From contig OZ253947.1 of assembly GCA_965267345.1 (NCBI GenBank), forward strand, positions 398,665 through 462,664: a stretch of 64,000 bases of DNA. Reading direction: 5' to 3'. Both the position numbers and the translations under genes were made by a program. This DNA is from Minisyncoccota bacterium (GTDB lineage: Bacteria; Patescibacteriota; Minisyncoccia; Phycocordibacterales; UBA2100). Below the pieces are notes generated by a model that searched no databases, was not told where the DNA came from, and saw nothing but the letters and a program-made list of their open reading frames with translations. This document shows, one piece after another, positions 241 to 63,143 of this stretch (positions are counted from its first letter, which is position 1; the number at the start of each line of letters is the position of its first letter).

Positions 241-340
241 GTCGTAATATTAAAAGGTTTGATAACTACGTACACTCAATGGTACCTGCACCCATCGCGG
301 GTACAAGCAACTGTACGTAAAATATGTGGATAGTGCGCGC

Positions 341-676: not shown

Positions 677-683
677 ACCAGCA

Positions 684-1037: not shown

Positions 1038-1084
1038 AGTGTGTATGGTAGCACACTGCCGCGCGTCGATGCGTGTCATGTGTA

Positions 1085-1387: not shown

Positions 1388-1393
1388 AGACCT

Positions 1394-2710: not shown

Positions 2711-2721
2711 GATTTACCCTA

Positions 2722-3558
2722 TCATACCAGCTCTTGCGCAATTGTGCGTTTGATAAAGTCGGTGTCATCGGCTGTCGGAGCCTGTGCGGCACGTGCCGCT
2801 GCGTCGCTCCCTGCAGCCGATTTGGTGCACACAATGCCGTAGTGGTACTCGCCTGCCGGAAAGTCGCGCTTGAGGACAAATCCGTTATCGGTACACAGCA
2901 GCACTGCTTCGGGACGTCGCACGACAACCTCCTTCGGCGGTCCCACGCCCCCGAATGAATCGCTCCAATCAATGAGTACTAGTGTGCCTGATGGCTTCAG
3001 TGTTCGATAGGCTTCTTTAATGACGGCAATGCGATCTTCAACCTGAAAAAGTGTGTTGGAAATAATGACGACGTCGAGTGTTTCGTCGGCGATTTTTGTT
3101 CCCTCAGATGCTTCGATATTGCCCCATACCACTTCGACATTTTCAAAGCCGCCCTTCACCATTTCATTTTGAATACGGGTGAGGAGCGTCTGCTGCACCT
3201 CGACGGCATACACGCGCCCAGTAGTACCGACGATACGCGCCAGTGGTGCAATGTACTCGCCCGAGCCTGCACCAAAATCAGCAACGTGCATGCCTTCGCG
3301 CACGTGGAGTTGTCGCGCAACCTGCTGTGGCTTCACAAATGTACCCTCCGAGGAGACAGCCTGCTGCATTTGCATTTCATTCGCACTCTTCACCCGCGCA
3401 AATTTTTGTGTTGCCATCCGTGTATCGCCGTCGAGTGTTGGTCCTTTGGGCGTCGCATCCTGCTGGGTACCACCAACGCGAATATCAACGTCGGTCCCCC
3501 CGACGCGAATACGCGTCTGTGCACCGTATGCTGCGTGCGAACGATCCATACCCTCCAA
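2722..3558 (-). CDS. Class I SAM-dependent methyltransferase
   Basis: Motif I VADFGAGSGEY and motif II-like VVIISNTLFQV. The N-terminus has RIRVGGTDVDIRVGGT repeats. Confidence 0.7.
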   Translation of the reverse strand: MEGMDRSHAAYGAQTRIRVGGTDVDIRVGGTQQDATPKGPTLDGDTRMATQKFARVKSANEMQMQQAVSSEGTFVKPQQVARQLHVREGMHVADFGAGSGEYIAPLARIVGTTGRVYAVEVQQTLLTRIQNEMVKGGFENVEVVWGNIEASEGTKIADETLDVVIISNTLFQVEDRIAVIKEAYRTLKPSGTLVLIDWSDSFGGVGPPKEVVVRRPEAVLLCTDNGFVLKRDFPAGEYHYGIVCTKSAAGSDAAARAAQAPTADDTDFIKRTIAQELV

Positions 3559-3618
3559 GTATAGCGCACTCCCCGCCTGTCACGCGCGTACATACATCCA
3601 CACCCAAAACGGTGCGCA

Positions 3619-6120
3619 CTACGCCTTATCTTCCTTTGTGAGTGTCACGATTGAGGCAATAGCATCGCCGGAACGGAGCTTCATAATGCGTACGCCCTGC
3701 GTCTGTCGCCCTTGTAGCTTCAAGTCATCAATCGTTGTTCTGATGACCTGCCCGCGCTTCGAGACCGCAACGAGCTCGCCGGTGTCTGCATCGATGACGC
3801 GTGCGCCAATAAGTTCTTTTGTCTTTGGGGTGATATCAACGGTCTTGATGCCCGATCCTGCACGCTTTTGGACCTTATACTCCTTCATAGCGGTCTTCTT
3901 TCCGTACCCGGTTGCCGATACGACGAGCAGTGCGGCATCTTTCGCTCCCTTTTCCACCACACCGGCACCAATGACGGTGTCATCTTTGCCGAGCTTGATA
4001 CCGCGCACACCTGCAGCGGTGCGTCCCATCTCACGTGTATCGGCTTCAGTGAATCGAACCGCCTGACCGTTTTTGGTGATCAAAACGATGTCGTCACCCT
4101 TGGCAACAAAATGTGCTGAAATGAGTCGGTCACCGCCGGTGAGCTTGATAGCAATAAGGCCACTACGACGCACATCAAAGAATTGCGGTGCCGCTGTTTT
4201 CTTCACCGTTCCCTCGCGCGTCACCATTAACAGTGAGAGCTCTTCTGCATCTTTGATATCTTTCGGCATTGGTAGCACTGACGTCACTTGCTCGTCCTGC
4301 TCAAGCTGCAGGAAATTCATAATTGATTTTCCTTTTGTTGAACGCTTGCCTTCAGGAATTTCATACATCTTCGTCTGGTAGACCTTTCCTTTATCGGTAA
4401 AGAACAGTAGATCAGAGTGTGCGCTTGCGGTGAGGAATGTGGTAACTACATCTTCCTCTTTGGTATTCATATCAATGACCCCAACACCACCACGTCGCTG
4501 CGTACGATACTCGCTCGGATTCGTGCGCTTAATGTAGCCGCCGCGGGTCAGCACGAGTGCAAATGCGTCATCAGGGATGAGGTCTTCCATGGAGAAGTTC
4601 TTGGTGCCGCGCTTCATGATTTTCGTGCGGCGATCGTCACCGTACTTCTCTGCCGCCTCTTTCAGCTCTTTCTTAATTTGATTCATCAGCTTCGTCTTAC
4701 TCTTGAGAATACTCTCGAGCTCAGCGATGAGTGTTTGGAGCTCTTTCAGCTCGTCTTCAATTTTTTGTCGCTCAAGGTTCGCCAGCTTCTGCAGGCGCAT
4801 TTCGAGAATTGCCGTGGCCTGCACGTCAGAGAATTTAAAGGTCTTCATGAGTCCGGCGTGTGCTGTCGGCACGTCCTTACTCTTCTTAATGAGCGCGATC
4901 ACCTTGTCGATATTGGCGAGTGCTTTTTTCAGACCCAGCAAGATGTGCTCACGTGCACGTGCTTTGTCGAGATCAAACTGAGTGCGGCGCGTTACCACCT
5001 CAGTGCGGTGTGCAACGTACGACTCAAGCATCGACTTAAGCGGGAGTGTTTTTGGCACACCGTCAATGAGTGCCACCATGTTGTAGTGGAATGTTTCCTC
5101 AAGTTGGGTGTGCTTGTAAAGGTAATTCAGCACCGACTGCGGGTGTGCTGTTCCCTTCAGATCAATCACCACACGAATATCGGTGGTTGATTCGTCACGA
5201 AGCCCTTTAATACCTTCGAGCTTCTTCTGCTGTACCAGGTCGGCAATTTTTGAAATGAGTGTTGCTTTGTTAACGCGGTATGGAATTGACGTAATGACAA
5301 TCTGGAACGTACCTTTTGCTCCTTCGACGATCTCTGCCTCACCACGCACCACCACACCACCGCGCCCGGTTGCGTATGCATGTGCAATGTCTTTCTGATT
5401 AAAGGCAACACATCCTGTTGGGAAATCAGGTCCCTGAATGTATTTGAGTAGATCCTCAGTCGTGCTCGATGGCGTATCAATCAGGTGCATGATGGCATCG
5501 GTCACCTCGCGCAGGTTGTGTGGCGGTATATTTGTTGCCATACCCACAGCAATACCCAGTGTGCCGTTGAGCAAGAGGTTCGGGAGTGCCGCCGGCAACA
5601 CGGTTGGTTCTTTGTGTGTGTTATCAAAGTTTGGGCGGAAGGTAACGGTATCTTTACCGATATCGCGCAGTAGCTCGACGGCAATGGCCGACATTTTCGC
5701 CTCTGTGTAACGGTACGCAGCTGCCGGGTCGCCATCGATGGAACCAAAGTTACCCTGTCCGATAATGAGCGGATAGCGCATCGAAAAATCCTGCGCGAGG
5801 TTGACCATCGAATCGTAGACGGCAGAGTCGCCGTGCGGGTGGTACTTACCGATTACGTCACCGACAACCGTTGCCGACTTGCGTGTCTTGGCATTCGGCG
5901 TCAGACCCGAGTTGTGCATGGCAAAGAGAATGCGACGATGCACCGGCTTCAGTCCGTCACGCACATCAGGAAGCGCACGTGAGGTAATGACACTCATCGC
6001 GTAGTTCAGATACGCTTCGCGCATCTCGCCACTAATGCCTTGGTTGATGACTCCTGCGCGAGTTACCGGCTGTACGTCATCCTTTTTTTTATCGTCATCT
6101 TTTTTCTTTCGTGCTGCCAT
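3619..6120 (-). CDS. gyrA: DNA gyrase subunit A
   Basis: 833 aa. The N-terminus reads ...[28 protein letters not shown], with the active-site Tyr region and a C-terminal beta-pinwheel repeat region. Confidence 0.93.
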
Positions 6121-6122
6121 AC

Positions 6123-6491
6123 CTACTCGTCGTTTTCTTCGTTGGTAATTATAACGTTCTCCACTGATACGTCACCGTCGCCTTCGGTGCTGATGCGTAC
6201 CGCACGTTTTTGCGCAGCGGTCGCCGTTGCCGACTGTAATTCGCTAAACTGCGTGCGCAGCTCACCCGTCTGCCGCTTCAGTTCTTCAGCAGCCTCGCCG
6301 AGTGACTCAAGTGCGCTTGCTTGCTGTGACTGTACTGTCGGCTGCGGTGCTGCAGTGCCCGATGATGAGAGTACCACAATGCCCCATACGACGAGAAGTA
6401 CTACGCCAACCACAACAGCAACACTCAGTGCGAATGAAAATCGCTCTGCTTCCGGTCGCTGTCGCAATTCGTCAAAAAAACGCATACGCAA
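6123..6491 (-). CDS. Small membrane-anchored coiled-coil protein, co-transcribed upstream of gyrA
   Basis: N-terminal TM ([18 protein letters not shown]) then a coiled-coil. Stop is 2 nt before the gyrA start. The start codon may be TTG at 6491 or ATG at 6485. Confidence 0.5.
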
Positions 6492-13388: not shown

Positions 13389-14657
13389 ATGAAGCAAGTA
13401 AAACCGGAAGTTGAAGCATTTGCCCGCATTCGCGTTGTCGGTGTCGGTGGCTCAGGAAAGAATGCCATAAATCACATGATCGACTCGAAAGTGCAGGGTG
13501 TCGACTTCATTGCCATCAACACCGATGCGCAGGATTTGCACTACTCGAAAGCGAAAAAGAAAATTCACATTGGTAAAAACCTGACACGCGGTCTTGGCAC
13601 CGGTATGAATCCTGAACTGGGCCGTCGTGCTGCTGAGGAGACAAAAGAAGAAATCCACGAGGCTCTGAAAGGCTCGGATATGGTCTTTGTGACGGGCGGC
13701 ATGGGTGGTGGCACCGGTACGGGTGCAGCGCCCGTGGTTGCGCAGATTGCCCGTGAATCGGGTGCACTGACGATTGGTATCGTCACCAAACCATTTTCAT
13801 TCGAAGGACAGCAGCGTGCGCGCCTCGCCGCTGACGGTATTGCGAACCTCCAGTCACAGGTAGACGCACTCATTATGATCCCGAACGACCGCCTGCTCAC
13901 GACGGTCGACAAAAACACCGGCATCAAAAATGCGTTTGCGATGTGTGACGACATTTTGAAGCAAGCCGTTGAAGGTATTTCTGACCTCATCACCACTCCG
14001 GGTATCATTAACGTCGACTTTGCCGACATCCGTGCTGTTATGGAATCTGCCGGCTCAGCACTCATGGGTATCGGCACCGCCGCCGGTGAGAGTCGCGCAA
14101 CGAAAGCCGCACAGGCTGCCATCCAGTCGCCACTGCTTGACGTTGCTATCGACGGCGCAACGGGCGTACTGTTTGCCATTGCCGGCGGTGATGACCTCTC
14201 GATGCTTGAAGTACAAGAAGCAGCAACAACCATCACCAACTCAGTTGACCCGGATGCACGCATTATCTTTGGCGCTATCAGCGACAATTCACTCAAGAAG
14301 GGCGAGATCAAGATTACCGTTATCGCGACGGGCTTCCCTGAGGACAACAAGCCGCAGATGACTACTGAAGAGCCGCGTCGTTCGCTCTTCGGTGGCCGCA
14401 CTGAGGAACCGGAACCGACACCGGTTGATGACACACCACCCGCAGTCGAAAAGACTACAGAAGCTGAGGACGAGCCCGTCATTCCAAAGATGCGTCGTCC
14501 TGAGCCAAAGACGCCGACATCACCGGCACCGCGCAAGAGCACGGCACAGCCAAAGAAAGCTGCTGAAACAAAGACGCAGGACGAACCCGATGACGACGAT
14601 GACGATAACGACTGGGGTGCGATTCCGTCGTTCCTGCGTCGCTCAAAGCTCAAATAG
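13389..14657 (+). CDS. ftsZ: Cell division GTPase FtsZ
   Basis: [14 protein letters not shown] and the tubulin signature [16 protein letters not shown]. The C-terminal acidic tail is conserved. Confidence 0.95.
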
Positions 14658-14696
14658 TGCGGTTGGTAGTTTATAGTTGGTAGTTTATAGTTACAG

Positions 14697-14725
14697 GAGT
14701 GCTTCGGCACTCCTTTCTCATTTTC
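14697..14725 (+). terminator. Terminator after ftsZ
   Basis: ggagtgc ttcg gcactcc followed by tttctcatttt. Confidence 0.55.
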
Positions 14726-14750
14726 CTATCACTACTAACCACCAAAACCT

Positions 14751-15668
14751 ATGTACGACATGATTATCATTGGCGCCGGACCGGCAGGAACCACGGCAGC
14801 CGTATACGCGGCGCGCAAGCGCCTCAAGACCGTGCTCATCACACAAGAATGGGGCGGGCAGAGTAATGTCTCAGCTGATATCCAAAACTGGATTGGCACG
14901 CCGCATATTTCAGGCGACGAGCTTGCACAAAGCTTTGAGGCGCACGTAAAGGAGTACGCAGACGACGTCGTTGACATTGTCTCCCCTGCTCGTGCCACAG
15001 GCGTGGCGCGCAGTGACAGCGGCTTTATCGTCACCACCGACAAGGGCGAAACCTACGAAGCACTGACCATCTTTCTTGCCGTCGGCTCGCAGCGACGACG
15101 CCTTCCGGCGAAGGGTGCCGACGAATTCGAGCACAAAGGACTGACCTACTGCGCGACGTGTGACGGTCCCCTCTTTAGTGGTCGCGACGTTGCCGTCATC
15201 GGCGGCGGCAACGCCGGTTTTGAAACCGCAGCACAACTGCTCGAGTACGCGAAAAGTGTGACGTTACTTGAGTACAATGAAGACTTCGTTGCCGATGAAG
15301 TGACCGTCGAGAAGCTACAAAAGAATGACAACTTCACCGGCATCACAAACGCCGAAACAACTGAAATCCTTGGTGAGCAGTTTGTCACCGGTCTCACCTA
15401 TAAAGACCGTGTGTCGGGTGAGGAGCATACGCTCGACGTCGGCGGTGTCTTCGTTGAAATTGGCATGATTCCAAATACCGACATCGTTGCCGATCTAGTT
15501 GAGCTCAATGAGCGCAAGCACATCAAAGTTGACCCGTACACGCAACAAACAACAACAGAGGGTATCTGGGCTGCCGGCGACTGCACTGATGTGCTCTACC
15601 ACCAAAACAACATCGCTGCCGGTGACGCAGTCAAAGCACTCGAAAACATGTACGGCTATCTGCGCTAA
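14751..15668 (+). CDS. trxB: Thioredoxin-disulfide reductase
   Basis: IIIGAGPAGTTAAVYAAR (FAD binding), redox-active CATCDG, and VIGGGNAGFETAAQL (NADPH binding). Confidence 0.9.
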   Translation: MYDMIIIGAGPAGTTAAVYAARKRLKTVLITQEWGGQSNVSADIQNWIGTPHISGDELAQSFEAHVKEYADDVVDIVSPARATGVARSDSGFIVTTDKGETYEALTIFLAVGSQRRRLPAKGADEFEHKGLTYCATCDGPLFSGRDVAVIGGGNAGFETAAQLLEYAKSVTLLEYNEDFVADEVTVEKLQKNDNFTGITNAETTEILGEQFVTGLTYKDRVSGEEHTLDVGGVFVEIGMIPNTDIVADLVELNERKHIKVDPYTQQTTTEGIWAAGDCTDVLYHQNNIAAGDAVKALENMYGYLR

Positions 15669-52989: not shown

Positions 52990-53961
52990 CTAGCGCGCTA
53001 CAACAGCATTTGGTGGCTGCTCACCATTGGCAAACGTAATAATATTTTCGGCAGCGATGCGGCTCATCGCGCCACGTGTTTCCTCGGTCGCCGAGGCAAT
53101 GTGCGGTGTCAGCACCACGTTTTCCAGCTCAGATAAACCATCAGCAAGCTGGGGTTCATTTTCAAACACATCCAGTGCTGCACCTTTAATGGTGTTAGTT
53201 CTCAGTGCATCAACCAGTGCTGCTTCGTCAATAACCGGTCCACGCGATGAGTTCACCAGATACGCTGTCGGTTTCATAAGCGCAAGCCGCTCTGCGTTGA
53301 GCAGATGGCGCGTAGAATCAAGCAGTGGCACGTGGACCGTAACAACGTCAGCCTCTTTCAGGAGCTCTTCCGGCGTTGCCTTAAACTGTGCAGCGACACT
53401 CGATTCAATCTCCGCGTTTTGTTCGATGTCGTAGTACATAATGCGCATACCTAAGCCTTTGTGGGCAATCTCGGCAACCCGAGATCCGATACGTCCCGCC
53501 CCAAGAATGCCGAGTGTCTTCCCCTTCATGTCGGTCCCAAGCAGTAACATTGGTGCCCAGCCATCGTACTTCCCTGCGCGCGTAAAGCGGTCAGCTTCGG
53601 CAATGCGATTCATTGCCGCCATCATGAGTGACACCGTGTGTTCAGCGACCGTTTCTGTGAGAACGCCGGGGGTATTGGTGATGGTGACTCCCCGCTCTTT
53701 CGCAGCATCAAGATCAATATTGTTATAGCCGACGGCGTAATTCGCAAAGATTTTTGCATTCGGTGCTGCATCAAAAACTGCTGCGTCGATCGTGTCGGTC
53801 AGCAGACACAACACGGCCTCGGGGTCATGTTCCGTGAGAGCCGCAATGAGCTCGTCATGTGTAAGCACGCCGTCTTTGTCACTCACGGTGACACTGTGCC
53901 CTGCCTCCTGCAGGAGCTTTAATCCCTCATCAGGTATGCGTCGAGTTACGAAGATTCTCAT
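52990..53961 (-). CDS. D-isomer-specific 2-hydroxyacid dehydrogenase (glyoxylate/hydroxypyruvate reductase-like)
   Basis: NAD-binding GILGAGRIGSRVA. Catalytic R/E/H triad region. 323 aa. Confidence 0.85.
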   Translation of the reverse strand: MRIFVTRRIPDEGLKLLQEAGHSVTVSDKDGVLTHDELIAALTEHDPEAVLCLLTDTIDAAVFDAAPNAKIFANYAVGYNNIDLDAAKERGVTITNTPGVLTETVAEHTVSLMMAAMNRIAEADRFTRAGKYDGWAPMLLLGTDMKGKTLGILGAGRIGSRVAEIAHKGLGMRIMYYDIEQNAEIESSVAAQFKATPEELLKEADVVTVHVPLLDSTRHLLNAERLALMKPTAYLVNSSRGPVIDEAALVDALRTNTIKGAALDVFENEPQLADGLSELENVVLTPHIASATEETRGAMSRIAAENIITFANGEQPPNAVVAR

Positions 53962-54155
53962 GATGCGTCAAGTACTAATTTCTAAATTTTAAATGCTAAA
54001 CAAATTCTACATTCAAATGTCATAATCGAGAAACAATGCTTCCAAATATCTTCATTAATTCTGTACTTTCATTCAGCAACCGTTCCTTTGTTTGAGATGA
54101 GTCTTCAAGATCGTACTGTGTGCGCCTTTCCGTCATTTCTCCCTTTGTTCATTGT

Positions 54156-55040
54156 TTAGGATTTTTCTTTTGGTATTTCGTAATTCATAAATAATGTCAG
54201 CCGCTCTTGCACCACTTCAGTGACAGCATCGCGCCCTTTGTCCAAGTAGCGGTACGGTGCAATCTCCTCCGAGTTTTCAGCGAGTGCCGTTTCGATACCC
54301 TTGCGATACGCCACACGAATTTCAGTATTGATGTGCACCATGTTCATGCCGGCAGCAATCGCTTTCACAAAGTCCTCGTCGGTAATTCCCGAGCCACCGT
54401 GCAGTACAAAGTCAGTGTCCGGCAGTGCGGCACGCAGCGCAGCTATGAGTTCAATGTTAAGCGCCGGATTTGAGCGCCCCTTGAGCATGCCGTGAAGATT
54501 GCCAACCGCCGGTGCCAGCGCACTCACTCCCGTCCGCTCCACGTACGCCATAGCATCGTCTGCCGTCGGCAGTGCTGCGGCGACCACATCATCGGGCACA
54601 TCATCCAATACTTTTGATGACGTTCCGATGTAGCCGAGCTCTCCTTCCACTATCACGTCACGTCCTGAGTCATTGGCATAGTCCACCACTTCACGTGTCT
54701 TTTCGATGTTTTCTTCAAGCGGCAGTTTCGTACCGTCGAAAATAACGGAATCGAACCCTGCATCAATTGCCCGCTTGCAGCCGTCAATGTCGTGTGTGTG
54801 ATCAGCATTCAGAAAGATTGGAATCTGAAACTCTTCGCGAGCCGCCGCAACCATGGCCACAGCCTTTTTAAGCCCAACAAACTCACGCTCACCTTCTGAA
54901 ACGCCGATAACCACAGCGACATCGAGTTCTCGCGCTGCAGCAGCAATCGCATTAAGTTGTGTTGAATCTGAGATATTAAAGTGTCCGAGCGCTACGCGCC
55001 GTGCGCGCGCATCTTCAAGTGTTTCGCGTAATGTATGCAT
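54156..55040 (-). CDS. fba: Class II fructose-bisphosphate aldolase
   Basis: GHFNISDSTQLNAIAAAARE..., DHTHDID and HGGSGI motifs. 294 aa. Confidence 0.88.
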   Translation of the reverse strand: MHTLRETLEDARARRVALGHFNISDSTQLNAIAAAARELDVAVVIGVSEGEREFVGLKKAVAMVAAAREEFQIPIFLNADHTHDIDGCKRAIDAGFDSVIFDGTKLPLEENIEKTREVVDYANDSGRDVIVEGELGYIGTSSKVLDDVPDDVVAAALPTADDAMAYVERTGVSALAPAVGNLHGMLKGRSNPALNIELIAALRAALPDTDFVLHGGSGITDEDFVKAIAAGMNMVHINTEIRVAYRKGIETALAENSEEIAPYRYLDKGRDAVTEVVQERLTLFMNYEIPKEKS

Positions 55041-55062
55041 ACCCTCAGTATAGCGAAGAGGT

Positions 55063-55135
55063 AGTTGGTAGTGAGCAGTTGGTAGTGGATAGTCTCGCTA
55101 TCCACTGCTCATCGCTCACTGCTCATCGCTCACCT
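55063..55135. repeat. Divergent-promoter spacer with two 14-bp-period tandem repeats (agttggtagtgagc/agttggtagtggat and cactgctcatcgct x2) flanking a short hairpin (ggatag tctcg ctatcc)
   Basis: Read from the sequence. Lies between divergent fba and the pfkB-family kinase gene. Both genes have TATACT 6-8 nt upstream of their ATG. Confidence 0.6.
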
Positions 55136-55152
55136 AGCTATACTGACAGTAT

Positions 55153-56145
55153 ATGACCAATCAATTGACATTCGTCGCTCTCGGCGACATCACCACTGAT
55201 GCATTTATCAAACTCCGTGAAGGCGTTCGCGTTGAAAAAGAACCAACCGGTAAAGAACTCTGCATGCGCTTCGGCGACAAACTCGAATACGACGATGTTA
55301 CTGTCGTGCCGGCCGTCGGCAATGCCGGCAATGCTGCTGTCTCAGCGTACCGCCTCGGCCTTGCCGCAGCGCTTGTGACCGACATTGGCGACGACCAGTT
55401 TGGCAAAGACAAACTCCAAGCACTCACCGATGAAGGCGTCGATACCACGTACGTCGAGGTCCACGAAGGCATGCAGAGCAACTATCACTACGTGCTTCGC
55501 TTTGGTCCTGAGCGCACCATCCTCATTAAGCACCACGAGTATCCGTATGCAATTCCCGCATTTCCGACCCCTCCAAAGTGGATCTACTTCTCAAGTGTCG
55601 GCGAACACGGCCTCCAGTACCATCACGATTTGGCAGCGTATGTGAAAGAAAACGATGTGAAGCTCGCCTTCCAACCGGGTAGTTTTCAAATCTCACTCGG
55701 CGCTGAGGCAATTGCCGATGTGTACAAGGCCACTGAGCTCTTTTTCTGCAATAAAGAAGAGGCGCAGCGTATTCTCAAAAGTGACAGTGCCGACATCACC
55801 GAGCTCCTTGCGGGCGTTCGTGAGCTTGGTCCAACCATTGCAGTTATCACCGACGGGCCCGACGGTGCGTATGCGTCTGACGGTACGGGTGTCTGGAAAA
55901 TGCCAATGTACCCTGACCCTGCACCGCCTGTCGACCGCACGGGTGCGGGCGATTCATTCTCAAGTACCGTCACCGCAATGCTCGCTGAAGGTATGGATCT
56001 GCCTGAAGCACTCCGTCGTGGACCAATTAACTCTATGTCCGTCGTACAGCACATTGGCGCCCAAAAAGGACTGCTCACCCGCGAGCAACTCGAAGACTAC
56101 CTTGCCGAAGCACCTGCTGACTACACACTCGAGCAATTGGCGTAA
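55153..56145 (+). CDS. PfkB-family carbohydrate kinase (ribokinase-like)
   Basis: N-terminal GG motif region VPAVGNAGNAAV and C-terminal DRTGAGDSFSSTV (the PfkB signature 2). Confidence 0.8.
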   Translation: MTNQLTFVALGDITTDAFIKLREGVRVEKEPTGKELCMRFGDKLEYDDVTVVPAVGNAGNAAVSAYRLGLAAALVTDIGDDQFGKDKLQALTDEGVDTTYVEVHEGMQSNYHYVLRFGPERTILIKHHEYPYAIPAFPTPPKWIYFSSVGEHGLQYHHDLAAYVKENDVKLAFQPGSFQISLGAEAIADVYKATELFFCNKEEAQRILKSDSADITELLAGVRELGPTIAVITDGPDGAYASDGTGVWKMPMYPDPAPPVDRTGAGDSFSSTVTAMLAEGMDLPEALRRGPINSMSVVQHIGAQKGLLTREQLEDYLAEAPADYTLEQLA

Positions 56146-56171: not shown

Positions 56172-56630
56172 ATGCGATACGCATCCGGACAACGCGGTTT
56201 TACACTGATTGAACTACTGGTAGTGGTTGCCATTATTGGCATGCTCTCATCTGTTGTCCTTGCGTCACTCAACAGCGCACGCACCAATGCACGTGACGCA
56301 CGGCGCATGCAAGATCTTACGTCACTGACGCGTGCACTTGAACTCTACGCAACCGACAACGTCGGCACATACCCCGCTCACTCTGACGGCACCGTCTCGG
56401 GCGACCTGAGCACCCTCGTATCAAACAACTACATCCCTGCACTGCCAGCTGATCCGCGCTACAGCGGTGGTGCGAATGACTATAAATACTGTCGCGGCTC
56501 AAATAGCGGCACGTATGATCTCGCCGCATACATTGAGGGCGCCAATCAGTGGTGTCGCTTCTCACACGCTGCTGTGCCAGTCACCAGTTGCCTCAGTGAT
56601 ATCTCAAGTTTTTGTGGTGACGTTATCTAG
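56172..56630 (+). CDS. Type IV pilin / pseudopilin (prepilin-type N-terminal cleavage/methylation domain)
   Basis: QRGFTLIELLVVVAIIGMLSSVVLASL, the class III signal peptide with G-1 and E+5. C-terminal Cys pair. Confidence 0.85.
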   Translation: MRYASGQRGFTLIELLVVVAIIGMLSSVVLASLNSARTNARDARRMQDLTSLTRALELYATDNVGTYPAHSDGTVSGDLSTLVSNNYIPALPADPRYSGGANDYKYCRGSNSGTYDLAAYIEGANQWCRFSHAAVPVTSCLSDISSFCGDVI

Positions 56631-57619
56631 GCTTTTCGCTGACGTACCCGCTCGACTGCAGCCACGATGCTCGGCGCATCGAGCTTGTAGTGAGCGATGA
56701 GCTCGTCAGGTGTACCTGATTGACCAAATTCATCTTTCACGCCGACGAACTCCATTGGTACCGGCGCATGTTGTGCCAGTACTTCTGCAACGGTACTGCC
56801 AAGCCCTCCTGCTGCCTGATGCTCCTCAACCGTTACCACGGCACCTGCCTGCTTTGCAACCGTAACTACCTGTTCTTCTTCGAGCGGTTTAATGGTGTGC
56901 ACATTGAGTACGGTTGTCGACACACCTTTGTCCTCAAGTTCGCGTGCGGCGCGAAGCGCATGATGTAAGAGTGGCCCACAGCCAATAATGGCTACCTCAG
57001 GACTCTCACTCTCCCACAGCAATTGGGCTTTGCCGATTTCAAATGGTGATTCGGGTGTTGTGATAACGGGTGTTTTTTCGCGAGCAAGGCGAATGTACAC
57101 AGGCGCATCAATGTCTGCAGCCGCGAGTGTGGCTTTGCGTGCCTCATGCGCATCGCATGGAGCAATGACGACCATGCGCGGAATGACCCGCGTAATGGCG
57201 ATATCTTCAATTGCCTGATGCGTGCCGCCATCAGGGCCCACCGACACACCGGCGTGACTCCCGACAATTTTCACTGCACGATCGTTGTAGCAAATCGTTG
57301 TGCGAATCTGCTCCCAGTTCCGCCCAGGACTAAACATGGCGTATGAGGTAATAAACGGAATCTTCCCTGCAGCAGCCATACCTGATGCCACGACGGCTAA
57401 ATCCTGCTCGGCAACACCCATCTGCACAAAACGCTCAGGATACTTGTCGGCAAAGTCTTTCATGCGAGTTGAACCCGTTAAGTCAGCACATAATCCGACA
57501 ACTGCTGCATTGGCATCGGCTGCTTCGACGAGCCCGTCGCCAAAACCATTGCGCAGCGCCACCTGCTCAACATCATCATCAAATATTTTTGTATTTAGTC
57601 GTGCATTTTTAGCAAGCAT
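56627..57619 (-). CDS. tkt: Transketolase, C-terminal subunit (pyrimidine-binding and C-terminal domains)
   Basis: Conserved start at MLAKNARL...; the ORF extends to 57853, and that extension overlaps the 4HB gene so is rejected. The conserved core is FVQMGVAEQDLAVVASGMAAAGKIPF. Confidence 0.85.
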   Translation of the reverse strand: MLAKNARLNTKIFDDDVEQVALRNGFGDGLVEAADANAAVVGLCADLTGSTRMKDFADKYPERFVQMGVAEQDLAVVASGMAAAGKIPFITSYAMFSPGRNWEQIRTTICYNDRAVKIVGSHAGVSVGPDGGTHQAIEDIAITRVIPRMVVIAPCDAHEARKATLAAADIDAPVYIRLAREKTPVITTPESPFEIGKAQLLWESESPEVAIIGCGPLLHHALRAARELEDKGVSTTVLNVHTIKPLEEEQVVTVAKQAGAVVTVEEHQAAGGLGSTVAEVLAQHAPVPMEFVGVKDEFGQSGTPDELIAHYKLDAPSIVAAVERVRQRKA

Positions 57620-57638
57620 AGAGGTATGAGCTGTGAGA

Positions 57639-58001
57639 TTAGAGCTTTTTAATGAATACGTATAGCATCTTCTGTACTTCCTCAAGCAAGGATTCAGTTG
57701 TACGGTCAGTAACGTGGTAGATCTCCCTAGCAAGTAGTAATTGTGTTTCAAGCTCCGCTGCCGATCCTGCTGATATTGATAAAAATTGCCGATAGTCCTT
57801 GTCTGTTTTCCGCTGGGAACCTTCTGCGATATTCGAAGGAATTGAAACAGCACAGCGGCGCATTTGAATTGCTAAGCCGAACCGCTCATCAGTTGGGAGT
57901 TCTTTTGACAACAGATATACGTTTTTCGTAAGTGCCATTGCCTTCTCCCATACCGTTAATTTTTTGAAATCGCGTACCATATCCTTTTGCTCATTGCTCA
58001 C
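57639..58001 (-). CDS. Four-helix-bundle protein (TIGR02436 / 23S rRNA-intervening-sequence protein family) inserted between the transketolase subunit genes
   Basis: DFKKLTVWEKAMALTKNVYLLSKELPTDERFGLAIQMRRCAVSIPSNIAEGSQRKTDKDYRQFLSISAGSAAELETQLLLA matches the family consensus. ~43% GC against ~58% flanks. Confidence 0.85.
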   Translation of the reverse strand: MSNEQKDMVRDFKKLTVWEKAMALTKNVYLLSKELPTDERFGLAIQMRRCAVSIPSNIAEGSQRKTDKDYRQFLSISAGSAAELETQLLLAREIYHVTDRTTESLLEEVQKMLYVFIKKL

Positions 58002-58025
58002 GCCTCACTGCTCAGGGCTAATGCA

Positions 58026-58889
58026 CTACTCATGTTCACTCATTATTTTCCCACCAAGCGTGCGTAGTTCGTGCAACGCCGCATCGGCTTCTTCCTTATT
58101 TGGTGGCTTACCGTGCCAGTGGTAGTCACGCTCAAATTCTTTCACCCCCTTCCCAGGAATCGTGTGGGCAATAATCACCGAGGGCTTGTCATTAACCGAT
58201 TGCGCTTCCCCGATTGCGTCGTTCATGTCGGTAAAACTGTGTCCGTCAGCATCCTGCACATGCCACCCGAAACTCTCAAACTTTTCCTTGAGTGGCTCAA
58301 GTGGCATCACGTCCCACGTAAAGCCGTCAATCTGGATGCCGTTGCGATCGACAATAGCAATAAGGTTTTGGAGGCGCTCGCGACCGGCGAGCATTGCCGA
58401 CTCCCACACCACCCCGCACTCGAGTTCACCGTCGCTCATGAGTGTGTAGACGTAGTGGTGTGCCTGCCGATTCGCATCAATGCGCGCGGCAAGCGCCATC
58501 CCAACCGCCTGTCCCAGACCCGAGCCAAGCGGCCCCGAGCTCACCTCAATGCCGAGTAGCCACTCGCGATGCGGATGCCCTTGCAAACGTGAGCCAAGTT
58601 TGCGCAGTGTTTTGAGTTCCTCCACTGGAAAGTAGTCGGCACGTGCCATCGCTGCGTACTGCACAGGACAAATGTGTCCGTTGGAGAGCACAACACGATC
58701 ACGCTCTTCCCAGTCGGGATTCTGTGGGTCGTGCGTGAGTCGATGAAAATACAGCAGCGTGAAAATGTCAGCCATCCCGAGCGGTCCGGCTGTGTGCCCA
58801 CTGCCCGCTTCAAGCAGCATTTCAATAATGTCCTGACGAATCGTATTCGCCATTGCTGCGAGCTCCTGTACCTTTTCGTCGGTTAGCAT
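58026..58889 (-). CDS. tkt: Transketolase, N-terminal subunit (TPP-binding)
   Basis: GSGHTAGPLGMADIF, the TPP-binding GDGELECG and HHYVYTLMSDGE. Confidence 0.88.
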   Translation of the reverse strand: MLTDEKVQELAAMANTIRQDIIEMLLEAGSGHTAGPLGMADIFTLLYFHRLTHDPQNPDWEERDRVVLSNGHICPVQYAAMARADYFPVEELKTLRKLGSRLQGHPHREWLLGIEVSSGPLGSGLGQAVGMALAARIDANRQAHHYVYTLMSDGELECGVVWESAMLAGRERLQNLIAIVDRNGIQIDGFTWDVMPLEPLKEKFESFGWHVQDADGHSFTDMNDAIGEAQSVNDKPSVIIAHTIPGKGVKEFERDYHWHGKPPNKEEADAALHELRTLGGKIMSEHE

Positions 58890-58948
58890 ACTACCGCTAT
58901 TGTAGCATTGCCGCTGAGCAAATACGGAGGGTCCCTATCCACTTTCTG

Positions 58949-61033
58949 CTATCTCCGCCCCTGATTATAGAGTCGCTGAACTTCAGAAGCAGATAACCTG
59001 CGGTTATACAGCCGCACATTGTCGACGGAACCATTGATAATCTGTGATACTCCTCCTTGCCCTATGCCAATGCGAAGATTCCCTGACCCGGTATGCGTCG
59101 TGGTTGTGGTGAGAACAAGCTCACCATCAATGTAGAGTAATGTTCCGTTCGACACCCCCGAATCAAATACTGAAACAACGTGGTGCCACTCGCCGTCATC
59201 TAAACTGACGCCGGTACTTCTAAATGCAGGTGTGCCGTTATCATACACACCAAATATACCGCCCCATAAGTACATCCCATAGACTTGCGACTTCGTTATG
59301 ATACCGCGAAACGAGGAGCCGGGATTTGTTGTCTTTACCCACGCACTCACCGTACCGGTATTAATTTGTGCCGCAGCAGGAGCGCCCATCTCAACGTAGC
59401 TGTCATCAACATCGTTAAATGTGAGTGCTTGGCCAATCACTCCTATCGTCTTCTCTGGGCTATTTGTTAGTGTTCCATCCATACTGCTGCCACTCCTATC
59501 AATTGCGGTCGTCGTTGATACGTCAGGGCCATCAAAACTCCACAGACCGATAAGGCCATCAGCTAATGACCCCGTGCCGTTCGTGGTGGCAACTTCACTG
59601 GGGCGGTTTGCGTTGTAGATCCGTTTGAGTTCTGCTTCGGTAATTGCTCTGTTATAAAAACGTACATCATCAAGCACGAAGTCAACTGTATTTCTCGAGT
59701 CACTTCGCATGCGTATACCACCATAGCCTGTGCCCGAGGTTGCAGACTGCAATGTAACATTGTCAATCTCGATACCATTTTTGTAAATGGTAAGGTCAGT
59801 GCCGTTTTTGATACCCACGATATGTACCCATTCGTCCTGCTCGACGGTACCCGCTGGAGTATTCAAACCATCGTTTCCACTCACGTCAGTGCTTGACCGC
59901 CAGTGAAGCGCCCCGTCAGCAGAATTATTGAAGTACACGGCGGGAATCCTTCCGCCCGTTCCATCGCTTGCGGACGTGCCGTCTCCATTACCGACAATAA
60001 GATTCCAATTGTTATCAAGTGCAGTCGTTTGTCGTATCCAAAACGCGAGCGTGTAGTCAGTTATATGCAGCGCGGCGTTATCAGCAGTGGTGACACTATC
60101 CGTATCCTCAAAAAGCATACCCTGACCTGCGATCCCACGCGTAACTACAGCGCCAGTAATTGTTCCATCAATGTTGTTGCCACTGCGGTCTTCTAGTGTT
60201 GTTCCCGAAACATCCTTCCCATCAAACGCCCACCAGCCCACCAGGCCGCTAATATCTTCAAGTTGGCGGCTACGGCCGACAACTATGCGACCACGCTCAT
60301 ATAACGCTTGTATCTCACTCGCGCCCATTGCTCGATTATAGATACGCATTTCGTCAATGACTCCTGAAAAATCTTGTGGCACAGCACCATTGTTGGTTCT
60401 CCCGATTGCAAGGGACGCAGCTGTCACCGTTGGTGCAGTAACTGTTCCGCTGTTGGTAAACGAACCGTTTACATAAAAACTGAGGGTCGTTCCTGAGCGC
60501 ACGATAGTAACATGACTCCACTGATCCAAAGGCACACTGCCAGTAGTACCCGCAACCGACTTAAAAGACCCATCATACCACTGCATGTACGGGTACTGGC
60601 TGGGTGCATTATAAAAGAGCGAGTATTGAAGGTCAGATCCCTGTCCAACCCGCAGAGCGGCCTGCGCGGTATCGTAATAGGATGACGATGGCTTAATCCA
60701 AGCTGAAATGGTGACATCGCCTGAAATAGCAAGCTCTGGATTCGTCGATCCTGCAGGTACCACAACGGTCTGATTATTGTCTGTGTCACTCCCATCAAAA
60801 AATAAAGCTGTGTCTCTTTTTCCCGTCACCCAACTTGGCCCGCCTGACAAATTTCCGTGATTCGTGTTGCCACTGAAATCAGTGGCAACAGAACCCGATC
60901 CATCATCAAACGACCAATAGGCTACCAGTCCCAAGTTATTCGGCGGTGCACTTATCGACCCTGCTGCTGCCGTATGTGGGAGGGCGGTTACCAGAAAACC
61001 AATAGCAATGAGTACAAAAAAACGCTGCTGCAT
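58949..61033 (-). CDS. Large secreted protein with three LamG-like (Laminin_G_3 / concanavalin-A-like) domains
   Basis: Signal peptide. Three repeats of the W(S/A)FDG..(D/G)VS..T..D.SG....G(T/N)L... pattern characteristic of LamG_3 domains. 694 aa. Confidence 0.75.
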   Translation of the reverse strand: MQQRFFVLIAIGFLVTALPHTAAAGSISAPPNNLGLVAYWSFDDGSGSVATDFSGNTNHGNLSGGPSWVTGKRDTALFFDGSDTDNNQTVVVPAGSTNPELAISGDVTISAWIKPSSSYYDTAQAALRVGQGSDLQYSLFYNAPSQYPYMQWYDGSFKSVAGTTGSVPLDQWSHVTIVRSGTTLSFYVNGSFTNSGTVTAPTVTAASLAIGRTNNGAVPQDFSGVIDEMRIYNRAMGASEIQALYERGRIVVGRSRQLEDISGLVGWWAFDGKDVSGTTLEDRSGNNIDGTITGAVVTRGIAGQGMLFEDTDSVTTADNAALHITDYTLAFWIRQTTALDNNWNLIVGNGDGTSASDGTGGRIPAVYFNNSADGALHWRSSTDVSGNDGLNTPAGTVEQDEWVHIVGIKNGTDLTIYKNGIEIDNVTLQSATSGTGYGGIRMRSDSRNTVDFVLDDVRFYNRAITEAELKRIYNANRPSEVATTNGTGSLADGLIGLWSFDGPDVSTTTAIDRSGSSMDGTLTNSPEKTIGVIGQALTFNDVDDSYVEMGAPAAAQINTGTVSAWVKTTNPGSSFRGIITKSQVYGMYLWGGIFGVYDNGTPAFRSTGVSLDDGEWHHVVSVFDSGVSNGTLLYIDGELVLTTTTTHTGSGNLRIGIGQGGVSQIINGSVDNVRLYNRRLSASEVQRLYNQGRR

Positions 61034-61037
61034 ACTA

Positions 61038-61604
61038 CTATTCTACCGCAAATGTCGACAGCATCTCGCCCAATACTGGTGCCATACTACGACTTGACGA
61101 GACTTGGTAGAGGAAATCGCCATGCACGAACCATGCATGTGCTTCGCTCCCGTTAAAGAAGCCGACGCCCTGTATCGTGTCGCCAATCACGATCTGTGCA
61201 GGACGCTCCATCGCTAAGTCCGGCAAATCGGCACGAATACGCCCAATCGTAAGCAGCCCTACTTCATCAAATGGCGTTATAAAAAGTTGCACACCCTGTC
61301 GCGGATTGTCCCGCTTTTGAAACAGCACCGCTTCCCCTTCACCCTCAGGAAACACGCCGACCGTGAACCCTTCCGGGTGTATTACACTAAATGCAGGATA
61401 TTCGTGAATGTAGCGCCCGTCTTCAGTACGCGGAGTTGGCAGCGGCACTGCCGTATCAGCAGTATCTGTCGCAGCTGTCATGCTGCCAGATACTGACGCA
61501 GGCTGCTGTGCGTTTTCTGTCGGAGCGTACACCCCATACGCAAGCGCCCCGATACTCCCGATCGCCACAATTACCATCGCAGTATATGCAAGACGTATGC
61601 GCAT
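61038..61604 (-). CDS. Hypothetical secreted protein (188 aa)
   Basis: N-terminal TM/signal (MRIRLAYTAMVIVAIGSIGALAYGVYA). No recognisable motifs. Confidence 0.45.
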   Translation of the reverse strand: MRIRLAYTAMVIVAIGSIGALAYGVYAPTENAQQPASVSGSMTAATDTADTAVPLPTPRTEDGRYIHEYPAFSVIHPEGFTVGVFPEGEGEAVLFQKRDNPRQGVQLFITPFDEVGLLTIGRIRADLPDLAMERPAQIVIGDTIQGVGFFNGSEAHAWFVHGDFLYQVSSSRSMAPVLGEMLSTFAVE

Positions 61605-62328: not shown

Positions 62329-62589
62329 CTAAGATGTAGTAAACGCAACGGGTTGCGGCACTGGCGGCAATTCAGTGTTTTCGCGCGGCCAGAATACAAA
62401 TGCGAGAATCGCTGCCACAACGCCGATGGCAATGAGTACGAATGCTGCCTGTCGTGCATCTTTTGCCAAACCCGCACGGATCACTATTTTCGTAAGTGCT
62501 GACATGCGCGGTCCGCGTGGGCCGCGGGCATACTGCATTCCAGGTTCATCGAATTGCACATTGTTCGCCATATATCGGTATTGTATCAC
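62329..62589 (-). CDS. Small hypothetical membrane protein (86 aa)
   Basis: Single TM (AFVLIAIGVVAAILAFVFW). Sits between rpe and rpiB. Confidence 0.35.
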   Translation of the reverse strand: MIQYRYMANNVQFDEPGMQYARGPRGPRMSALTKIVIRAGLAKDARQAAFVLIAIGVVAAILAFVFWPRENTELPPVPQPVAFTTS

Positions 62590-63143
62590 TCTGCCTCTTC
62601 CGACAAACGTGGTGTGTGCACAGCATCTACCTTTGCCATACGGCGCACGTGCCGCTCATCGCCGCTAAAAGCTGTTTCCAGCCACTGCTGCACTGCTTCC
62701 TTTGCCACATCGACGGTCACAAAGCGCGCCCCGATACTCAACACATTCGCGTCATTGTGGGCGCGTGCTGACGTAATGATATTAAGCTGCTCGCCCGTCG
62801 CGTCAGTTTGTGTCGTTGCCGGCTCACCGTAAAATACGGCTGCGCGTACGCCTTTAAAGCGGTTTGCGACCATCGCCTCACCCTGCCCTGACCCGCCCAG
62901 CACGATGCCGAGATGGCCATCTCGGGTATCCGAGATGCGCTGCGCAAGCGGCACAACGTAGTCGGGATAGTCGTCCAGCTCGTTATATTCATAGGCACCG
63001 CAGTCCTCCACCGAAAACCCAAGCTCATCGCGCACAAACGCCATAAGCTCTTCTTTCAAAGAGAATCCTGCGTGATCTGAGGCAAAAAGTATGTTGCGAG
63101 CAGTTGGGAGTTGGGAGTCTGTAGTTGGGAGTTCTTGATTCAT
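62586..63143 (-). CDS. rpiB: Ribose-5-phosphate isomerase B (RpiB/LacA/LacB family). The N-terminal 17 aa are encoded by a gttgggagt repeat tract, so the start may be downstream.
   Basis: ILFASDHAGFSLKEEL...GIVLGGSGQGEAMVANRFKGVRAAVFYG, the RpiB signature. Confidence 0.8.
   Translation of the reverse strand: MNQELPTTDSQLPTARNILFASDHAGFSLKEELMAFVRDELGFSVEDCGAYEYNELDDYPDYVVPLAQRISDTRDGHLGIVLGGSGQGEAMVANRFKGVRAAVFYGEPATTQTDATGEQLNIITSARAHNDANVLSIGARFVTVDVAKEAVQQWLETAFSGDERHVRRMAKVDAVHTPRLSEEAE

Follow-up and report, generated by a model that had tools for sequence, protein, structure and literature searches.

A four-helix-bundle gene wrapped in inverted five-repeat heptamer arrays within a split transketolase operon: a putative ageing cassette of the intervening-sequence type

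Introduction

Among described genetic elements, the closest counterparts of the one considered here are the intervening sequences (IVSs) of bacterial 23S rRNA that carry an open reading frame (ORF) of the S23p family (PF05635). The IVS of Coxiella burnetii has a 28-bp terminal stem and tandem GACAGAT heptamers upstream of its S23p ORF, and it is cut by RNase III at the first heptamer, as established in vitro and by mapping of cDNA ends (RACE) (PMC4990558). The proteins of the family form toroidal homopentamers to which no function has been assigned (Warrier 2016, PMC4990558), and the description as a homopentamer is likewise supported by the title of Lin 2006. Here we analyse a 64-kb stretch of the genome of a Minisyncoccota bacterium (contig OZ253947.1), hereafter called the window, in which a PF05635 gene is inserted between the two genes of a split transketolase and is flanked on both sides by arrays of five heptamers that are inverted with respect to each other.

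The heptamers connect the locus to a second body of observations, on short intergenic repeats. Simple-sequence repeats with a heptameric unit are over-represented in many bacteria (PMC4692102, PMC4679880); in the Beggiatoaceae, TAACTGA repeats lie directly 5′ of start codons (PMC4679880), and heptamers of Xanthomonas are in some cases arranged as convergent pairs (PMC4692102). Crystal structures of the protein family date from 2006-2007, yet no function has been assigned outside the Avd protein of diversity-generating retroelements (DGRs), and the intergenic heptamers described as short tandemly repeated repetitive (STRR) sequences in 1990 and as TAACTGA repeats in 2015 are equally unexplained. 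We suggest, with a probability of roughly 55%, that the insert in the window is an old IVS-type cassette of the PF05635 family that lives in an mRNA operon.

Results

Organization of the tkt locus and its insert

The gene in question, hereafter the four-helix-bundle (4HB) gene, is the middle one of three that are read head to tail from the minus strand in the order tktN, 4HB gene, tktC. The insert between tktN and tktC measures 406 bp. The affinities of its tktN place the organism among Patescibacteria of the Paceibacteria type. The features of the locus are as follows.

58026-58889, minus strand: tktN, N-terminal (thiamine diphosphate-binding) subunit of transketolase; PF00456 E=1.5e-63, NF004559 E=4e-83 (profile positions 12-280)
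58026-58028, minus strand: stop codon TAG of tktN, the host gene upstream of the cassette
58020-58030, minus strand: outer left arm, AGTAGTGCATT; overlaps the tktN stop and pairs with 57597-57607
58020-57986, minus strand: upstream array, five heptamers TAGCCCT GAGCAGT GAGGCGT GAGCAAT GAGCAAA; identified from the sequence, by lag-7 detection and as a run of five AG with period 7
57639-57980, minus strand: 4HB gene, 113 aa, PF05635/TIGR02436 (S23p/Avd-like); ATG start, with an alternative GTG at 58001 that would give 120 aa
57648-57614, minus strand: downstream array, five heptamers AAAGCTC TAATCTC ACAGCTC ATACCTC TATGCTT; identified from the sequence and as a run of five CT with period 7
56627-57619, minus strand: tktC, C-terminal subunit of transketolase, the downstream host gene; PF02779 E=2e-37, PF02780 E=1.5e-27
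57597-57607, minus strand: outer right arm, AATGCACGACT, within codons 5-8 of tktC; with the outer left arm it forms inverted repeat I2

Read on the sense strand, the layout is 5′ (Y/G)AGNNNN ×5, ORF, NNNNCT(R/Y) ×5 3′. The dinucleotide AG recurs in phase five times in the upstream array, which spans 35 nt and ends 5 nt before the ATG at 57980. In the downstream array CT recurs in phase five times; this array covers the last two sense codons and the stop of the 4HB gene together with the ATG and second codon of tktC, so that the tktC start codon sits inside it. Both intergenic spacers are made up almost wholly of the arrays. A first-pass annotation of the window, made from its letters alone, had drawn attention to a tandem motif, GAGCAGTGAGGCGT/GAGCAATGAGCA, just 5′ of the gene. 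The motif is real, although it takes in only four of the five repeats and has as its complement a five-repeat array downstream.

The two arms can pair with each other, enclosing the ORF in a long stem-loop. Their local alignment score is 26, and among position pairs of like geometry within the window only 0.13% score as high (p ~0.0013); when the arms are joined by an A-rich linker they fold with -39.2 kcal/mol (z=-4.88), a value that none of 200 shuffles equalled. Folding of the entire region to its minimum free energy brings the flanks together as a long stem around the ORF, and this closing stem includes the 11-nt, 91% complementary inverted repeat I2, which lengthens the arm pairing. Because I2 joins the tktN stop region with codons 5-8 of tktC (chance expectation ~0.02, by a rough calculation), the stem reaches into conserved host coding sequence. 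The fold of the 461-nt region as a whole is not unusually stable (z=-0.83); only its terminal stem stands out. Two features of the IVS elements are present at the locus: a stem formed by inverted repeats at the ends, and tandem heptamers ahead of an S23p-family ORF that is oriented with the host transcript.

The assignment of the gene to the TIGR02436/PF05635 family, which the first-pass annotation had proposed along with its place between split tkt genes, is borne out by profile matches above the cut-offs (PF05635, E=1.1e-35, 122.5 bits against 33.8; TIGR02436, E=2.8e-33, 114.4 bits against 24). Its length and spacing fare less well. The list of ORFs gives the gene as 57639-58001 (minus strand), starting from a GTG, and this ORF of 120 aa, 24 nt from the tktN stop, does exist. 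However, the ATG at 57980, giving 113 aa, is more likely to be the start, because the identical database protein (P0001) and the aligned orthologues begin there and the GTG at 58001 falls inside the array; the spacer to the tktN stop is then 45 nt and not 24. The 78-aa N-terminal extension of tktC was correctly regarded as an artefact: a spurious ORF of 408 aa runs across the insert from a GTG at 57853, whereas the true tktC has 330 aa, and its N-terminus, MLAKNARLNTKIFDDD, aligns with MLNxxxKLNPKLFD of relatives. As to base composition, the gene has 42.7% GC, close to the ~43% first stated, whereas its surroundings are not at the ~58% stated but at 53-55% (tktN 55.4%, tktC 53.3%; window 52.8%).

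No sigma-70-like promoter and no intrinsic-terminator-like site of the minus strand is present at 56400-59100. By Pfam identification the gene string of the window reads gapA, rpiB, rpe, an unknown ORF, a LamG gene, tktN, [4HB], tktC. Because the cassette has no promoter or terminator of its own and occupies a co-directional place in this gap-rpiB-rpe-...-tktN-[4HB]-tktC string, it is most likely expressed as part of the operon transcript of its host genes. The 4HB gene is the only ORF of the cassette, and no transposase or integrase gene adjoins it. Nor is a target-site duplication evident around the window element or its orthologues, and no direct repeat flanks the arms. With no recombinase, no target-site duplication and no near-identical copies, the element does not qualify as an autonomous transposable element or as a miniature inverted-repeat transposable element (MITE). 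The immediate neighbours of the cassette region are tktN, tktC, the LamG-domain gene and a pilin-like gene. Between rpe and tktN (58949-61604) lie a gene whose 694-aa product has three Laminin_G_3 domains and begins with what resembles a signal peptide, and an ORF of 188 aa with no Pfam match; the two look like accessory insertions into the tkt gene string.

Inverted arrays of exactly five repeats across the protein family

The architecture was followed through a family sample of 80 metagenome loci with close homologues (46-64% identity), to which the 4HB copies from tkt loci were added. Self-identity at a lag of 7 in the 70-nt flanks reaches 0.43 on the upstream and 0.40 on the downstream side, compared with 0.26 in controls, and lag 14 gives the only further peak; lag 7 is the best lag in 67 of 80 upstream and 55 of 80 downstream flanks. 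The 5′ and 3′ flanks of a locus pair with -37.3 kcal/mol, compared with -24.9 kcal/mol when flanks of different loci are combined (Mann-Whitney p=5e-18). An arm score of at least 26 is found for 60% of 4HB genes and for 0.4% of 2062 shifted controls from the same loci. At the level of RNA duplex energy the separation is poorer than by alignment of the arms as DNA: only 13.8% of elements lie beyond the 5th percentile of same-locus shifted controls, and GC-rich loci yield strong duplexes by chance.

The heptamer consensus consists of Y, A (0.89), G (0.95) and four positions, NNNN, that vary between elements. The arrays also have a set orientation with respect to the ORF. On the sense strand, AG runs of at least four occur upstream in 53 of 77 cases, where CT runs occur in 5; downstream the CT runs number 43 of 77 and the AG runs 4. 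The number of repeats is also sharply defined, with in-phase runs of exactly five in 39/78 upstream and 29/84 downstream arrays, whereas only 2 of 594 control segments reach five; around 4HB genes, runs of four or six are much rarer than runs of five. In 636 kb of related tkt loci, AG and CT alone show a bump at five, and the run lengths of G/C-containing dinucleotides otherwise fall monotonically. The distance from the end of the array to the start codon has a median of 7 nt. Identity between proteins correlates with identity of the variable NNNN part of the repeats (r=0.22, permutation p<0.001), and the ORF and its arrays therefore evolve or travel as a unit. Wrapping by inverted five-repeat arrays is thus a signature of the PF05635 family, typical of most close homologues and of the copies on cyanobacterial plasmids.

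Genomic context of family members

The family is very large (at least 8000 candidates were scored, nearly all of them significant). The first-pass annotation had held its members to be carried typically on 23S rRNA IVSs. This does not apply to the relatives of the window gene, since Rfam models detected no rRNA in the 40 of 80 close-homologue loci that were scanned or in the window, where only tRNAs were found, and the genes lie among protein genes read in the same direction: a same-strand neighbour is present upstream in 59 of 67 cases and downstream in 64 of 80. The distance to the preceding stop codon is typically 10-85 nt, which leaves room for little more than an array.

Low GC is equally a property of the family. 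At 75 of 78 loci the 4HB gene has less GC than its flanks, the mean difference being 8.7 points, and its GC content follows that of the host (r=0.82, slope 0.72); the regression predicts 44% for the window gene, where 42.7% is observed. Foreignness, for which low GC had been offered as a sign, does not follow from it.

Copies on plasmids, matches to which are mostly from Nostocales and Riemerella, show the same organization at other sites. Inverted heptamer arrays, such as TAGGGAG in Nostoc, give arm scores of 64 in Nostoc, 50 in Geminocystis and 34 in Picosynechococcus. The plasmid genes are inserted between cas6 and cas4, between cas10(cmr2) and cmr3, and in a ribonucleotide reductase gene pair, there in antisense; the plasmids are pPg_01 of Pseudanabaena galeata (L165), a Picosynechococcus plasmid (L168) and a Nostoc edaphicum plasmid (L164). 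Several copies can also share an operon, as in the pentose-phosphate/glycolysis operon of locus L163 (positions 1-6339), which reads gap-[4HB]-rpiB-[4HB]-rpe-[GIY-YIG]-tktN-[NYN]. This operon is the clearest example of such placement, and its backbone recurs in the window. Nearly every junction of it holds a small accessory gene, and the GIY-YIG gene (5030-5329) has an inverted repeat of its own, of ~33 bp and not heptameric.

The tktN/tktC junction as an insertion hotspot

A comparison of 83 tktN/tktC junctions (the window, the 80 genome loci L001-L080, and the contigs L161 and L162 of the two closest homologues) identifies this junction as an insertion hotspot across Paceibacteria. About half of the junctions are shorter than 80 nt, and ~40, of which ~35 are among L001-L080, contain inserted DNA that ranges in length from 130 to more than 1600 nt. 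A 4HB gene is present at seven (window, L161, L162, L030, L043, L051, L065). These carriers belong to at least three separate tkt clades, between which the 4HB proteins are 35-49% identical, and among relatives the same site is polymorphic for the presence of the gene, with carriers interleaved among empty or differently filled junctions. The remaining cargo comprises at least ten types by Pfam, including a protein with a tRNA-binding domain, Gp49/HTH toxin-antitoxin pairs, PemK, MazG, glyoxalase, HIT, HD, NUDIX, DUF1653 and membrane proteins. This other cargo has no inverted-arm boundaries, its scores being at background level; arms at the tkt junction are confined to the 4HB inserts. Some junctions that lack a gene still hold arrays: a solo five-repeat array in L005 and L056, other heptamer arrays in L018 and L040, and an ORF-less inverted pair in L059.

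Age and history of the insert

That the gene is an insertion, as first proposed, is upheld by its relatives L001-L003, L005, L006 and L010, in which only ~0-45 nt separate the tktN stop from the tktC start. That it is a recent one is contradicted by several findings. The two closest homologues in 5.8 billion proteins, P0002 (73% identity) and P0003 (69%), lie on the short contigs L161 and L162, both of which read tktN-[4HB], with the tktC start following in L161; the tktN genes of the two contigs are 80% and 77% identical to that of the window. The three cassettes align over their full length with five [T/G]AGCNNN heptamers in register, and RNAalifold gives a terminal stem of 32 pairs in which the AGC/GCU triplets are invariant. 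About eight pairs of the stem are kept although both partners have changed, as where L161 and L162 have TAGC/GCTA and the window has GAGC/GCTC; from three sequences alone, such changes are illustrative and carry no statistical weight. Compared with the orthologues, synonymous sites are saturated and dN is 0.2-0.3, with dN/dS well below 1. Because synonymous divergence (dS) is saturated while dN is so low, the 4HB protein has long been under purifying selection. The arms, on the other hand, have degraded: 25 of 29 positions match in L161 and 30 of 35 in L162, whereas 27 of 41 match in the window, the most decayed of the three.

A neighbour-joining tree of tktN scatters the three carriers among the empty-junction relatives L001-L003, L006 and L010; L005 keeps only its solo five-repeat array, and L004 holds something else. 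The comparison of the locus in relatives, which the first-pass annotation had recommended, thus gives a double answer: the insert is patchy (7/83 junctions), and the same-junction copies in L161 and L162 argue for age. A search for further copies of the gene, also recommended, finds a single 4HB gene within the window, and homologues elsewhere of which the nearest is 73% identical. A copy at the gap/rpiB junction of L163 (L163a) is 66-72% identical to those at the tkt junction, as similar as the same-junction copies are to one another. Such mobility as had been thought possible is supported over long timescales, by this copy and the patchy tktN tree, and not for the recent past. The sequence comparisons therefore point to an ancient presence with losses, relocation, or both, and not to a recent arrival. 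Spread of the cassette is slow and its presence patchy, and the window insert appears to be a complete but ageing copy.

Fold and likely oligomeric state of the protein

A phmmer search relates the protein to XCC0516 of Xanthomonas, PDB entry 2GSC (E=6e-22), and to BT_0352 of Bacteroides, PDB entry 2RLD, each of which contains five chains. The AlphaFold2 monomer model (pLDDT 95.9) has four helices, and Foldseek aligns it with a TM-score of 0.92 to 2GSC (chain 2GSC_E) and of ~0.8 to 2RLD; the predicted fold is a four-helix bundle like that of 2GSC and 2RLD. From the chains of these entries and the literature on the family, the window protein would be expected to form a homopentameric ring. The model also resembles the Avd protein of DGRs, whether free (4DWL) or as a component of the reverse-transcriptase ribonucleoprotein (8UBE, 8UB7), with TM-scores of 0.75-0.77 and an identity of 13-15%. 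Against the Avd equivalog profile NF033474 the protein scores 18.2 bits (E=0.0024), where the cut-off is 80. The PADLOC models of anti-phage defence give no family at E<=0.1.

Arrays without a 4HB gene in the window

Further arrays in the window have no 4HB gene beside them. At 55041-55152, an ORF-less inverted five-repeat pair (GGTAGTT GGTAGTG AGCAGTT GGTAGTG GATAG / ATCCACT GCTCATC GCTCACT GCTCATC GCTCACC) fills the spacer from which a gene for a class II fructose-bisphosphate aldolase (minus strand, 54156-55040) and one for a PfkB kinase (plus strand, 55153-56145) diverge. Its folding energy is -56.5 kcal/mol (z=-6.8), and its right arm is of the GAGC/GCTC heptamer type found in the 4HB cassette 2.9 kb away. 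A second ORF-less inverted pair, at 14655-14755 (TAGTTTA TAGTTGG TAGTTTA TAGTTAC ... CTATCAC TACTAAC CACCAA; z=-3.7), holds a stable UUCG-type hairpin in its loop and is flanked by an ORF that ends at 14657 and by a gene from 14751 that by eye is putatively of the thioredoxin-reductase type.

A solo five-repeat array at the start of rpiB (63102-63136), of CT type on the coding strand, encodes 17 residues ahead of the RpiB domain (ORF 62586-63143). Because the gapA/rpiB junction of L163 holds a full 4HB cassette, this array may be a relic arm or a 5′-leader element. Finally, an AT-rich heptamer array (TACTAAT TTCTAAA TTTTAAA TGCTAAA) at 53973-54000 lies by the start of a 2-hydroxyacid dehydrogenase gene (52990-53961, minus strand) and borders a low-GC stretch of ~190 nt (54000-54199, 33.5% GC).

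Discussion

How a cassette of this kind might persist in an essential operon is suggested by its architecture, and two steps can be envisaged: (i) processing of the stem in the host transcript; and (ii) recognition of the arrays by the encoded protein. In the first, by analogy with the IVSs, the arms in the tkt transcript would form a substrate for RNase III, and cleavage of the stem would excise the 4HB message. Such a cut would part the tktN and tktC cistrons without damage, which could be why cassettes are tolerated in essential operons. We regard this step as plausible, though somewhat short of an even chance. In the second step, which is more doubtful, the homopentameric ring would bind its own five-repeat arrays with one YAG per subunit, leading to autoregulation and/or to control of the stem over the start regions of the 4HB gene and tktC. 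Since the arrays cover both starts, translation could be set by competition between binding of the protein and pairing of the arms.

A bolder and still more tentative extension, which we think unlikely as it stands but worth stating, is that PF05635 proteins in general are ring-shaped readers of nucleic-acid repeats comparable to the trp RNA-binding attenuation protein (TRAP). Each subunit would take one YAG, with 35 nt running round the ring, and the whole would be a self-contained intercistronic module in which binding competes with arm pairing and RNase III for control of the start regions of the 4HB gene and the host gene that follows.

Several observations weigh against reading the insert as a cassette that is processed and bound in this way. 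The window arms are imperfect (27/41 positions matched), and their duplex of -41.7 kcal/mol is equalled or bettered by 5 of 30 same-locus shifted controls. Across the family, mismatches in the arms are of the G:U kind in 31 cases and of the A:C kind in 26, a distribution without bias; there is therefore no sign of selection on the sense RNA over symmetry at the DNA level or concerted evolution of the arms. A clear array is missing on one or both sides in ~20-40% of homologues. Among cyanobacterial copies, L167 has no arrays and L165 has direct instead of inverted ones, with ~15 AAAGCTA upstream and at least nine AAAGCCA downstream. Conversely, most five-repeat arrays in related tkt loci have no adjoining 4HB gene, and arrays can exist and persist alone. 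The similarity of the L163a copy softens the argument from orthology. A motif search found no RNase III gene (rnc) in the 64-kb window, which is ~10% of the 644-kb contig to which the record of P0001 belongs. Finally, if the protein does not bind the arrays, five repeats and five subunits are a numerical coincidence, and the repeat number could instead reflect an optimal stem length of ~35 bp. A search of viral contigs for five TAGNNNN in tandem returned 120 loci, in one of which (L191) a 4HB gene is adjacent; the pattern has only 15 specified bases, and as chance hits could by estimate number in the hundreds, the count speaks neither for nor against a link.

The strongest competitor of the cassette reading is that the arrays are native, slippage-prone repeats or hairpins at which the 4HB gene merely inserts or is retained, with no functional link and no RNA processing. 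It would account for the ORF-less and solo arrays of the window (14655-14755, 55041-55152, 63102-63136), for those in the tkt junctions of L005, L018, L040, L056 and L059 that have no gene, for the absence of a G:U bias in the arms, and for the general excess of heptamer repeats in bacteria (PMC4692102, PMC4679880). Slippage, however, predicts broad or geometric copy numbers and not a peak at exactly five, and it leaves unaccounted for why in tkt loci AG and CT show a bump at five that other G/C-containing dinucleotides lack, why AG is invariant within otherwise variable heptamers and fixed in polarity to the ORF, why the NNNN part of the heptamer changes along with the protein, and why other cargo at the tkt junction lacks such arms. 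We consider it unlikely for these reasons. A little less likely again is that the protein has been domesticated as a trans-acting regulator, the pentamer being a host RNA- or DNA-binding factor for array-bearing junctions of central-carbon operons and the tkt site its own autoregulated locus. Purifying selection on the protein would fit, as would the presence in 64 kb of other five-repeat arrays at operon junctions, including the rpiB start and the aldolase/PfkB spacer, and the CT-oriented arrays directly 5′ of host gene starts in the relatives L064 and L078, a placement shared by the TAACTGA repeats of Beggiatoaceae (PMC4679880). But the gene is patchy among close relatives at the same junction, some operons (L163) hold multiple paralogous copies, and members of the family are also known from rRNA IVSs and from plasmids, where they separate cas or rnr genes and in some cases lie antisense to them; the pattern looks selfish rather than housekeeping.

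The view first taken of this locus, that low GC marks a recently acquired and perhaps still mobile foreign gene, is largely refuted, and we give it little credence. The GC contrast (42.7% against 53-55%) is real, the closest tkt relatives (L001-L003, L005, L006, L010) lack the insert, and the family is found at many different junctions; yet homologues of 73% and 69% identity occupy the same junction in L161 and L162 with arrays in register, dS is saturated, the arms are degraded, no transposase or integrase gene adjoins, and the GC deficit is family-wide (75/78, r=0.82) and of the size predicted. Least probable of all, and very improbable in absolute terms, is a remnant or orphan Avd of a DGR. 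Similarity of fold (TM 0.75-0.77), a weak NF033474 match (E=0.0024) and the listing of PF22296 (bAvd) for homologues speak for it. The match of 18.2 bits falls far below the cut-off of 80, identity to Avd is only 13-15%, the gene is tightly placed within an operon spacer, and no reverse transcriptase lies beside it among the immediate neighbours, the rest of the window not having been searched.

An IVS-type cassette in an mRNA operon, the reading we prefer, would have consequences beyond this locus. Elements of this type are not confined to rRNA; in Patescibacteria and cyanobacteria they are found mainly at mRNA operon junctions, including those between cas genes. If PF05635 rings do read YAG arrays, then ORF-less five-repeat arrays in Patescibacteria would be left over from this system or would be its targets in trans, and the same would go for the STRR sequences, the TAACTGA repeats and the S23p-bearing rRNA IVSs; one mechanism would join three puzzles that are 10 to 35 years old. 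In any case, inverted arrays of exactly five YAGNNNN with fixed polarity, considered together with pentameric rings, make a concrete and testable link between a protein and a repeat. In this respect the tandem motif was the more valuable part of the first-pass annotation, as it leads to a link between an orphan family and orphan repeats. Beyond the remark on Coxiella, full-text literature searches found no published link of PF05635/S23p to five-fold inverted heptamer arrays; subscription journals are mostly outside that coverage, and an earlier description is possible. For annotation, such cassettes account for spurious N-terminal extensions and odd start regions in the genes downstream of them, and the low GC of the family should not be taken as a sign of recent horizontal transfer.

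Comparison with known systems

With MITEs and with repetitive extragenic palindromic sequences and bacterial interspersed mosaic elements (REP/BIME), the cassette shares an intergenic position, inverted-repeat boundaries and the coexistence of ORF-less hairpins and ORF-bearing versions in one genome. It differs in having neither transposase nor RAYT and no visible target-site duplication, and in that its arms are tandem heptamers and not unique terminal sequence.

Avd, the one member of the superfamily that has been characterized, contacts the RNA in DGRs. Like the 4HB protein it is a four-helix bundle with several chains in its PDB entries (4DWL, 8UBE), and it works, according to the title of a PDB entry, in a ribonucleoprotein with reverse transcriptase. 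The distance between the two proteins is nevertheless considerable, with an identity of 13-15% and a score below the NCBIfam cut-off, and next to the 4HB gene there is no adjacent reverse transcriptase, template repeat or variable repeat.

The STRR sequences of cyanobacteria, the TAACTGA repeats of Beggiatoaceae, cyanobacteria and Bacteroidetes, and GGGAATC of Xanthomonas have in common with the arrays a period of 7 and an intergenic position, often directly 5′ of start codons, and their taxa overlap with those rich in PF05635. The complement of TAACTGA, CAGTTAT, fits YAGNNNN, as do the STRR sequences CCCCAGT and CAACAGT; the G-rich heptamers of Xanthomonas and Nostoc are without the AG core. 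The papers on these repeats report no associated protein and no link to PF05635 (PMC4679880, PMC4692102).

The resemblance to TRAP, with its (G/U)AG repeats, is one of functional analogy only, between the predicted 4HB ring with its five-repeat array and a ring-shaped reader of repeats. TRAP is a ring-shaped homo-oligomer that recognizes regularly spaced NAG triplets in RNA, equal in number to its subunits, and in the 5′ leader its repeats overlap the ribosome-binding region and compete with alternative RNA structure. It differs from the family considered here in being a beta-sandwich 11-mer where the latter is a helical pentamer, in a spacing of 5-6 nt instead of 7 nt, and in that binding by the 4HB protein is hypothetical.

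The nearest parallel is with the 23S rRNA IVSs of Coxiella burnetii, Leptospira, Brucella and Haemophilus. These lie in helix 25 or 45 of 23S rRNA, whereas the window cassette lies at the tktN/tktC mRNA junction; their excision by RNase III is demonstrated, whereas that of the tkt cassette would be predicted by analogy; and two-sided five-fold arrays were not found described for them in a full-text search whose coverage leaves out most subscription journals. In other respects the two correspond closely. Both carry an S23p-family protein gene in the loop, both are closed by terminal inverted repeats that form a long stem, and in both the ORF is read in the direction of the host transcript and lacks a separate promoter. 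A short way ahead of the ORF, moreover, both have tandem heptamers that fit YAGNNNN, since GACAGAT of Coxiella, read in another phase, is CAGATGA.

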